From the NCBI RefSeq assembly GCF_044324785.1, contig NZ_CP172127.1: DNA of 64,000 nucleotides; one strand, given 5' to 3'. The number at the start of each line of letters is the position of its first letter. The stretch's first letter is position 1. Below, piece by piece: positions 59,801 to 62,800 of the stretch. Position numbers: made by a program. Origin of the DNA: Escherichia coli. GTDB lineage: Bacteria > Pseudomonadota > Gammaproteobacteria > Enterobacterales > Enterobacteriaceae.

Positions 59801-62800
59801 TTCTGCGAGCCTTCAACGTTAGCCTGGAAATCCCACAGATCGGTGTGGCTGTAGCGATCTTCTTCACCGCTGATTTTGCTGGCTGCCACTTCCTCAATCA
59901 GTCCGGCTGCACCGCCGACCACTTTTGAAGGTGGGAAAGCCAGTTCACTGATGCGTTTTTGCAAATCGACCACATCGGTATAAAGCTGGTCAGCGTACTT
60001 ATCCATCCCTTTGGTGGTGTTGTCGCCAAACAATGCTTTTTCCAGACGGTGGAAACCGGTGAATTTCGGATCGGCGGCTTTTTGCTCGTAATCATCTTCA
60101 CGGGCGTCAATGCTGCCATCCAGATCGGAGAACAATTCAGCAATCGGTTCAATGCGCTCATAGTGCTGGCGCGTCGGTGCATACAGTGCTTTCGCTTTTT
60201 CGATATCGCCTGCTTTAATCGCGTCGGTAAAGGCTTTGGTGTCGGTCACCAGCTGTGTGGTTTCCGCCATGACATACGCTTTATATGCAGTAATTGCACC
60301 ACCAAGACTTAACAGCGCATCACTTTGCGCCGCATCCGCCGTTGCCTCACCTTTGACAATCAACTTCCCTTTCGGGTTAGTCAGCAGACCGCAGGTCATA
60401 TCGTATTCGCCAGGCTGTAAATTCGCCGTCATTTTCTGGCTAAAACCAGGGGCGATATTTTCCCGCTCTTCCACCACCATCACGCCTTTGAGGATCTCCC
60501 ACTCCAGCGCCTTCTGGCTGTGGTTCTGAATAATGAACTGTGTTTTCCCGGCGTTAACCGTAATGGTCATCGGCTCGCACTGCTTATCCGTCACGGTCAC
60601 TTTGACTTGCGGAATATCGGCGGCGTTAGCCATAAAAGCAGAAGAGAACAGCGCAGCCACGCTCAACTGCAATGCGTTACGGCGGAAGTTAATGGTCATG
60701 ACGAGACTATCCCTTTAAAGTATGTTGTAACTAAGCAAGAGTTTGCGTCGTATTTGCTACGCGGAGCGAGACGCTGTCGCCCCTGCGCGTGGTGGCAGGG
60801 CAAATGCCACCAGCGCCGGGATGAGATAAATAAACCAGACGGCGACTTCGCTGACACTTGGCGCTTCCTGATAGCCAAAAATCCCTTCCATCAGCGTGCC
60901 AAACAGCGAGTGAGTTGACAGCACCGCGCTCATATCGAAGGCGATTTCCTGAAAGTGGTTCCACAATCCGGCTTCATGAAATGCGCGAATAGCACCAGCT
61001 GCCAGCCCTGCGGCGACGAAGAGAATAAACAGACTGGTCCATTTAAAAAATGCACCAAGATTGAGGCGAATACCGCCCCAGTAGAGCAGGAAGCCGAGCA
61101 CCACGGCTGTAGCAAGACCGAGCATTGCACCCAGCGGCGGCCAGATCCCGACATCTTGTTGAAATGCCGCCAGCAGGAAAAAGACCGACTCCAGCCCTTC
61201 CCTTGCAACGGCAAAAAAGACCATCATCACCAGCGCCCAGCCATGATGATTTCCACGCTGCAATGCGCTATCGACTGCCTGTTCCAGTTGCACTTTGACG
61301 TTGCGCGACACTTTGCGCATCCAGAAAACCATCCAGGTAAGGATCACCACGGCGATCACCGCCACGATACCTTCAAACAGTTCCTGTTCTTTTTGCGGAA
61401 ATTCGCCGGTGGTTTCGTTAATGAAGATACCCAAGCCCAGGCACAACGCAGCGGCAAACAGCACGCCAATCCACATCACACCAATCCATCGGCCTCGCTG
61501 GGTACGCTTAAGATAGCTGGCAATCAAACTGACAATCAGCGCGGCTTCAAGTCCTTCGCGCAACATAATGAGAAACGGAACAAACATGCCACCCACCCTT
61601 AAACGTTTTTCTGAGTCAATCTATGCAAAGAAAAGTAAATCGCAGTGATAGCGATTATCATTACGGTAAAGAAAAATACAAGCGGAATGTTTATAAAATG
61701 ATGTTGGAATGTAAAAACGAGGAGATCAAATCAGGAGATAAAAGCGATTATTTTAAGGTATTTAGCTGACTTTTCGCCCGGCAGATGAAGCTTGCACGAA
61801 TGTTGGTGGCGACAAACTCGCTGCAGCGTGCCCCGAAGGGTTGAATTTTCATTTTGTCGTTTCACAAAAGAACGTTGTTTTTTGCTTATTAATAGATAGT
61901 GATAAGGTTGTGAATAAAATTATACCTCATCTCCTCATCGAATTTTTCGCCCCAACCTAAACAGGAGAAAACGTGTATTTAAGCCTGGAATGAGCGATTT
62001 TTGATAGTGCGTAATTAACCCCAAAAATTATAATCCTCCTTATTATATTTCCAGTGATATCATTTTATGGCTAATGCTATATACAATTCTACATCACGAT
62101 AAAAAGAAGCAGGATGCGAATTAAAAAAGTCACATATAATAAAAATAGAAATCTTAACCAAAAGTAAGAGATTCTCGTGAAAATCAATCATCAAACACAC
62201 TAACACATAAAAATCAATAAGCTGATAATTAATCAAAGCTTTTTACTCACGATTTTTTACTATATTATTACAACCCCACTAGTATTGAATACAGAAAGAG
62301 AAGGAATAAGATGAGACGCCACTGTTTTCAGATGAACCCTGCAATTAGGGTCGAGCATATAATCCATCTATTTCTCGGTCGAAGAATTTGAAAATCTTAC
62401 GCGTTAATTTTTCCTCTGACCAAGGGCTAACATCGAATTAACAACAAGGCTCACGAATAATTGTAACTACGTACTTTATGAAACACAGGAAGAAATTATT
62501 ATTTACCGCGATGATTCAAGGCGTAAAAAAAATAACAATCTTCATGAACTCACCCCGATGGCAGCATTGTAAATTCGCCAATAACTGGCATTCCTCCTGC
62601 TTTTTACGGGTGCTTTCGTAGTTACACCATTAACACCAGAATGATCGGATTGATTACTACATCAAGAACGCATCCGAAGTGTACATCCTGGTGCGCAGAC
62701 TGAATCGCCCGGAACCATGCGGATGGCTACGACTTAATACGAATCATTAACCCTGTAAGGATACGGAGAGCATGACATGAGACCACTATCCAACCTCAAT

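Follow-up and report, generated by a model that had tools for sequence, protein, structure and literature searches.

The EfeUOB (YcdNOB) system of Escherichia coli O157:H7 is described, in the papers that cite Cao et al. 2007 (Mol Microbiol 65:857; cited in PMC3577903, PMC3852070 and PMC9174327), as one whose activity as an Fe2+ transporter at low pH was established experimentally. The transporter of K-12 MG1655 is non-functional by reason of a frameshift in efeU, and efeUOB of the enteroaggregative strain 042 is intact, according to the 042 genome paper (PMC2808357). The similarity of the permease to yeast Ftr1p has been reported as only ~25% (PMC3577903). The biochemical roles of EfeO and EfeB, as well as the physiological source of the iron (Fe2+ versus haem), are debated (PMC3577903, PMC3852070).

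We compared these systems with the efeUOB locus in a 64-kb window, by which we mean the whole 64,000-nucleotide stretch of E. coli DNA that was analysed. In O157:H7 the operon agrees with it in its three genes, their order and the lengths of their products (276, 375 and 423 aa). Against the proteins of O157:H7 PV15-279, EfeU differed at 1 residue (L44F), EfeO at 2 and EfeB at 7, a small number of conservative changes. The last ~130 bp before the efeU ATG, with the Fur box, were almost identical in the two, and the same 447-aa open reading frame (ORF) lay between putP and efeU. Downstream of the operon, however, the window differs from O157:H7 in that it is deleted for pgaA, pgaB and parts of pgaC and dgcT. 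The EfeU of 042 (WP_000497935.1) is a 100% identical protein, with a single synonymous difference between the genes at nt 555, whereas 5 residues differ in EfeO and 8 in EfeB. In addition, 042 has no pga genes by phoH in the region compared, while the window retains pgaD and a remnant of pgaC. The EfeU of WP4-S18 was also identical to that of the window, and efeUOB is annotated alike in 042, O157:H7, WP4-S18 and N3. The efeU of Nissle 1917 is reportedly the other experimentally tested allele, in work by Grosse in 2006. We consider it very likely that the locus holds a normal, wild-type E. coli efeUOB (ycdNOB) operon, intact and provided with a Fur box.

The permease gene lies on the minus strand at 60757..61587. 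By ORF listing and translation it comprises 831 nt, which begin with ATG, encode 276 sense codons and end with TAG, and translation of 60757-61587 gave zero internal stops. The preliminary description had read efeU as a single uninterrupted frame of 276 aa, and its coordinates proved exact. A GTG start 9 nt upstream (three codons; 279 aa) was set aside in favour of the ATG, which is the start used by RefSeq; the 831-bp ATG form is the one given there for 042, O157:H7 PV15-279, WP4-S18-ESBL-07 and N3. The two REGLE (RExxE) motifs that had also been claimed were found by motif search on the translation, with coordinates checked against the sequence, the first at aa 10-14 (61546..61560, minus strand) and the second at aa 129-133 (61189..61203, minus strand). 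EfeU scored 330.5 bits against the NCBIfam EfeU equivalog NF041756 (cut-off 255), 349.9 against TIGR00145 EfeU/Ftr1 (cut-off 303.8) and 300.3 against Pfam FTR1 PF03239 (cut-off 25.3), the last match spanning aa 1-275. As judged from its sequence, EfeU is an inner-membrane iron permease of the Ftr1/OFeT type.

With yeast Ftr1p/OFeT the protein shares a full-length Pfam FTR1 domain, two RExxE motifs and the character of a multi-pass membrane protein. The partners differ, however: in yeast the partner is the multicopper oxidase Fet3p, whereas the bacterial ones are EfeO (cupredoxin-M75) and EfeB (a DyP peroxidase). A crude Kyte-Doolittle scan gave six clear hydrophobic peaks (~aa 1-23, 38-56, 70-88, 146-170, 179-203 and 248-266), with a REGLE-bearing segment at ~aa 117-137 under the hydrophobicity threshold; this six-peak scan is compatible with the seven transmembrane segments published for EfeU (PMC9174327). 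A sequence search of the PDB returned no relative of EfeU among solved structures, and the role assigned to its RExxE motifs thus rests on the literature on yeast Ftr1p. At the nucleotide level, window position 61033 (efeU nt 555) carries a synonymous C-to-T change (AGC to AGT, Ser185) that is absent from K-12 and 042. None of the best 30 genomes listed matched the 1101-bp efeU region at 100%, the top match being 99.9%.

The three genes run in a single orientation with gaps of 57 nt and 5 nt, and all of them (276, 375 and 423 aa) are intact. The preliminary description had taken efeO and efeB to be intact as well, and both were indeed of full length with zero internal stops. The efeO gene (59572..60699, minus strand), which starts 57 nt past the efeU stop, encodes a 375-aa periplasmic protein of the cupredoxin plus M75/imelysin type. 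Its product scored 773.6 bits against the NCBIfam EfeO profile (cut-off 297), contained the Pfam domains Cupredoxin_1 at aa 13-115 and Peptidase_M75 at aa 135-368 with an HRLE (HxxE) motif at aa 217, and was near-identical to the solved structure 7WGU, with three differences in 349 aligned positions. The efeB gene (58295..59566, minus strand) starts 5 nt past the efeO stop and encodes a 423-aa Tat-exported DyP-type haem peroxidase/deferrochelatase, which scored 615.8 bits against TIGR01412 (cut-off 428). The Tat motif SRRRLLK was found at aa 13 of EfeB, and D235, H329 and R347 were all present. Following the YcdB structure papers, we take D235, the proximal H329 and R347 to be the key residues of the protein. 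EfeB was near-identical to the solved YcdB structures 2Y4F and 3O72, its substitutions relative to the crystallised protein being D144N, A405S, S418R and R422Q.

Two features were seen downstream of efeB. A hairpin with a 9-bp stem, ATGCCCGAT...ATCGGGCAT, lies just past the efeB stop and is not followed by a T-tract. In the efeB-phoH spacer, positions 58189-58223 (minus strand) gave a sub-threshold match to Rfam naRNA4, which is derived from REP elements (33.4 bits; gathering score 59.5). The Rfam search of 57800-64000 yielded no leader RNA of a known kind, and its two sub-threshold matches were this REP/naRNA4-like one and a chance-level match to COG2908.

The efeU gene of MG1655 (b4490) is an annotated pseudogene of 830 bp. 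The lesion was located in a three-way alignment of the window, K-12 and 042, in which the sole indel was one G missing from K-12 efeU. The window has a GG dinucleotide at efeU nt 106-107 in codon 36 (61481..61482, minus strand), as does 042, and the single G of K-12 shifts the frame. Read in frame 0, the K-12 gene ends with ...RGRWIV* after 36 residues; the other 240 lie in a different frame. This lesion agrees with the literature (PMC3577903, PMC2808357), and the frameshift that the preliminary description had given for K-12 was thereby borne out as a real difference between the two alleles. The possibility raised there of an overlooked frameshift or stop in the window was settled by translation and by DNA alignment against K-12, 042 and O157:H7, the only indel being the K-12 deletion. 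The 1-bp deletion in codon 36 that marks the K-12-type cryptic efeU is absent from the window; since both G residues are present and the frame is open throughout, the allele is not of the K-12-type cryptic kind.

Otherwise the two loci are much alike. They share the same site and the neighbours efeO, efeB and phoH, and hardly differ in the Fur box and the proximal promoter region, whereas K-12 is without the ~2.1 kb that hold the 447-aa ORF between putP and efeU. Besides the indel, there are 12 substitutions in 831 nt between the efeU of the window and that of K-12 (~98.6% identity). Only one of these changes a residue (L44F), so that a frame-repaired K-12 EfeU and the EfeU of the window are one residue apart, and another turns the stop TAA of K-12 to TAG in the window. 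Substitutions of this kind are in keeping with a gene long kept under purifying selection and damaged only recently in the K-12 lineage.

We then placed the two alleles among complete E. coli genomes, 5417 of 5426 of which contained the efeU region. The K-12 65-mer across the deletion was exact in 368 of the 5412 matching genomes and the intact 66-mer of the window in 3603 of the 5417, where both counts are of exact matches and ~1446 genomes fit neither exactly, those sampled looking like substitutions. The sampled non-K-12 matches at 98.5% identity spanned 66 subject bases, and the K-12-type matches spanned 65; the 66-base span indicates substitutions, not indels. Among the matches listed, all carriers of the exact K-12 65-mer (60/60) were K-12-type laboratory strains (MG1655, DH5alpha, C600, J53, DH1 and others). 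Most of the E. coli genomes checked have an intact efeU, and it is K-12 that departs from the norm, its pseudogene being due to a lineage-specific deletion of 1 bp in codon 36. The present strain does not carry this deletion. The contrast with K-12 drawn in the preliminary description is thus real, but the special standing that it implied for this strain falls away, because an intact efeU is the norm of the species. The contrast itself has been on record since 2006-2007. At the efeU locus K-12 serves poorly as a reference, and the value of the finding is that of an annotation check only.

The region upstream of efeU contains a predicted Fur box, CGTAATGATAATCGCTATC, at 61647..61665 on the minus strand, 60-78 bp upstream of the ATG. 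It agrees with the consensus GATAATGATAATCATTATC at 15/19 positions and with the 7-1-7 form at 12/14. In the 64-kb window it was the one site with at most four mismatches to the Fur consensus, as against a mean of 0.3 in shuffled sequences. The Fur-box-like site that had been noted earlier upstream of efeU was borne out. The last ~130 bp before the ATG, Fur box included, were almost invariant across the window, K-12, O157:H7 and 042. Past ~170 bp upstream of the ATG the window was wholly unlike K-12, whereas the upstream region as a whole, including the part missing from K-12, was arranged as in O157:H7. According to the literature, the operon is under direct Fur control in CFT073 as well as in MG1655 (PMC7157518).

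A weak CpxR-box-like sequence, GCAAAgaaaaGTAAA, was found at 61625..61639 (plus strand) in the leader/promoter region of efeU, with a 9/10 match to GTAAA-N5-GTAAA. Regulation of efeUOB by CpxAR has been published (PMC3852070), and it is only because of this and of its position that we list GCAAAgaaaaGTAAA as a candidate CpxR site. The window contained 6 CpxR-like sites of that quality, compared to 5.27 expected by chance; sites that occur at a chance rate mean that GCAAAgaaaaGTAAA is no evidence for CpxAR control. A simple scan for sigma-70 promoters, with 9/12 matches as the minimum, found none near efeU on its own strand. The sequence TTGTAT-16 nt-GATAAT, seen by eye to overlap the Fur box, has 8/12 matches and is not claimed as a promoter.

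Because it is near-identical to the experimentally tested O157:H7 system, EfeUOB is probably functional in the present strain, which we regard as a reasonable inference. Its expression, regulation and transport activity here are inferred in the same spirit. In the published model, taken to apply to this strain, iron limitation would lift the repression of efeUOB by Fur, and CpxAR would modulate expression with pH. In the periplasm, EfeO and EfeB would handle Fe2+ and oxidise it, and the iron would cross to the cytoplasm via EfeU by way of the RExxE motifs. The outcome would be support of growth in aerobic, acidic, low-iron conditions. Most natural E. coli genomes checked, the present one included, have an intact efeU and presumably a working EfeUOB for acidic, iron-poor conditions.

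The operon could also be expressed with another main job, in which EfeB, as a deferrochelatase, takes iron from periplasmic haem and EfeU imports it, instead of free Fe2+ being taken up at low pH. The EfeUOB of O157:H7, with its non-cryptic EfeU, is reported to promote the release of periplasmic iron from haem and its transport to the cytoplasm (PMC3577903), and the EfeB of the window is complete as a DyP-type haem protein and bears a Tat signal. However, Fe2+ uptake is given as demonstrated where Cao et al. 2007 and Grosse et al. 2006 are cited (PMC3852070, PMC2808357). The two roles are not mutually exclusive, and sequence does not tell them apart. We hold a mainly haem-directed role to be unlikely, though by no means far-fetched. 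That the genes are intact and the system is nevertheless silent or defective, whether by missense changes (EfeU F44; EfeB N144, S405, R418, Q422; EfeO I29, K234) or through regulation, appears quite improbable. Several residues are indeed unlike those of the studied O157:H7 and K-12 proteins, but EfeU matches the RefSeq protein of 042 and WP4-S18 at every residue, every motif and catalytic residue checked is in place, all three proteins score far over the curated family cut-offs, and the substitutions between efeU alleles are nearly all synonymous. On the regulatory side, the scan gave no strong sigma-70 consensus promoter and the sequence beyond ~170 bp upstream of the ATG is completely unlike K-12, but the upstream layout is that of O157:H7, whose system works.

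A further reading, in which the same set of alleles (EfeU F44; EfeB N144, S405, R418, Q422; EfeO I29, K234) makes the transporter behave or be regulated otherwise than in O157:H7, or in which the 447-aa ORF might affect its regulation, is very improbable in our view; nothing found points there. The intact efeU frame might, finally, be an artefact of sequencing or assembly that hides a K-12-like indel in the true strain, single-base indels in short runs being a common type of sequencing error. The site is, however, a mere GG dinucleotide and no long homopolymer, 3603 independent complete genomes carry an exact copy of the 66-mer, and the flanking SNPs follow the non-K-12 lineages, not K-12; we give this explanation hardly any credence. 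The reading that we prefer remains that of an ordinary, intact efeUOB operon.

Apart from the operon, the neighbourhood differs from K-12 by a deletion of ~6.25 kb, in which K-12 coordinates 1087671-1093921 are missing within window positions 54978-56443. The junction lies at 55294-55301, where two BLAST segments overlap by 8 bp. The deletion takes pgaA and pgaB whole, along with ~59 codons from the start of pgaC and ~349 from the start of dgcT, and joins the 3' remnant of dgcT to the 5'-truncated pgaC, whose remnant covers profile positions 42-407 only. The contiguous arrangement was found in 1 of 5426 complete E. coli genomes, namely N3 (NZ_CP031609.1), in which PGAP marks both remnants incomplete. 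With pgaA, pgaB and part of pgaC lost, production of the biofilm polysaccharide PGA should be impossible in the present strain.

On the other side of the operon, the spacer between putP and efeU is 542 bp in K-12 as opposed to ~2.7 kb with the 447-aa ORF. This hypothetical ORF (62777-64000, plus strand) has its 5' 407 codons inside the window and the rest past the window end, and is preceded by an AT-rich non-coding stretch of 1.2 kb (61600-62776). It was found in the same place, between efeU and putP, in 042, O157:H7, WP4-S18 and N3, but not in K-12. Its only Pfam match was a sub-threshold one to PipB2_N (secreted effector N-terminal; 17-19 bits), and no relative was found in the PDB. By eye, its C-terminal half shows internal repeats of ~60 aa.

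A chaperone-usher fimbrial cluster was also observed, at 45689-50247 (plus strand) and L005 1091-3612, with an 840-aa usher, a 444-aa StbD-like protein and a 229-aa chaperone; none of them reached its NCBIfam equivalog cut-off. In the window the reading frame of the usher is open, but in N3, a strain that is otherwise similar, PGAP annotates a frameshift in it.
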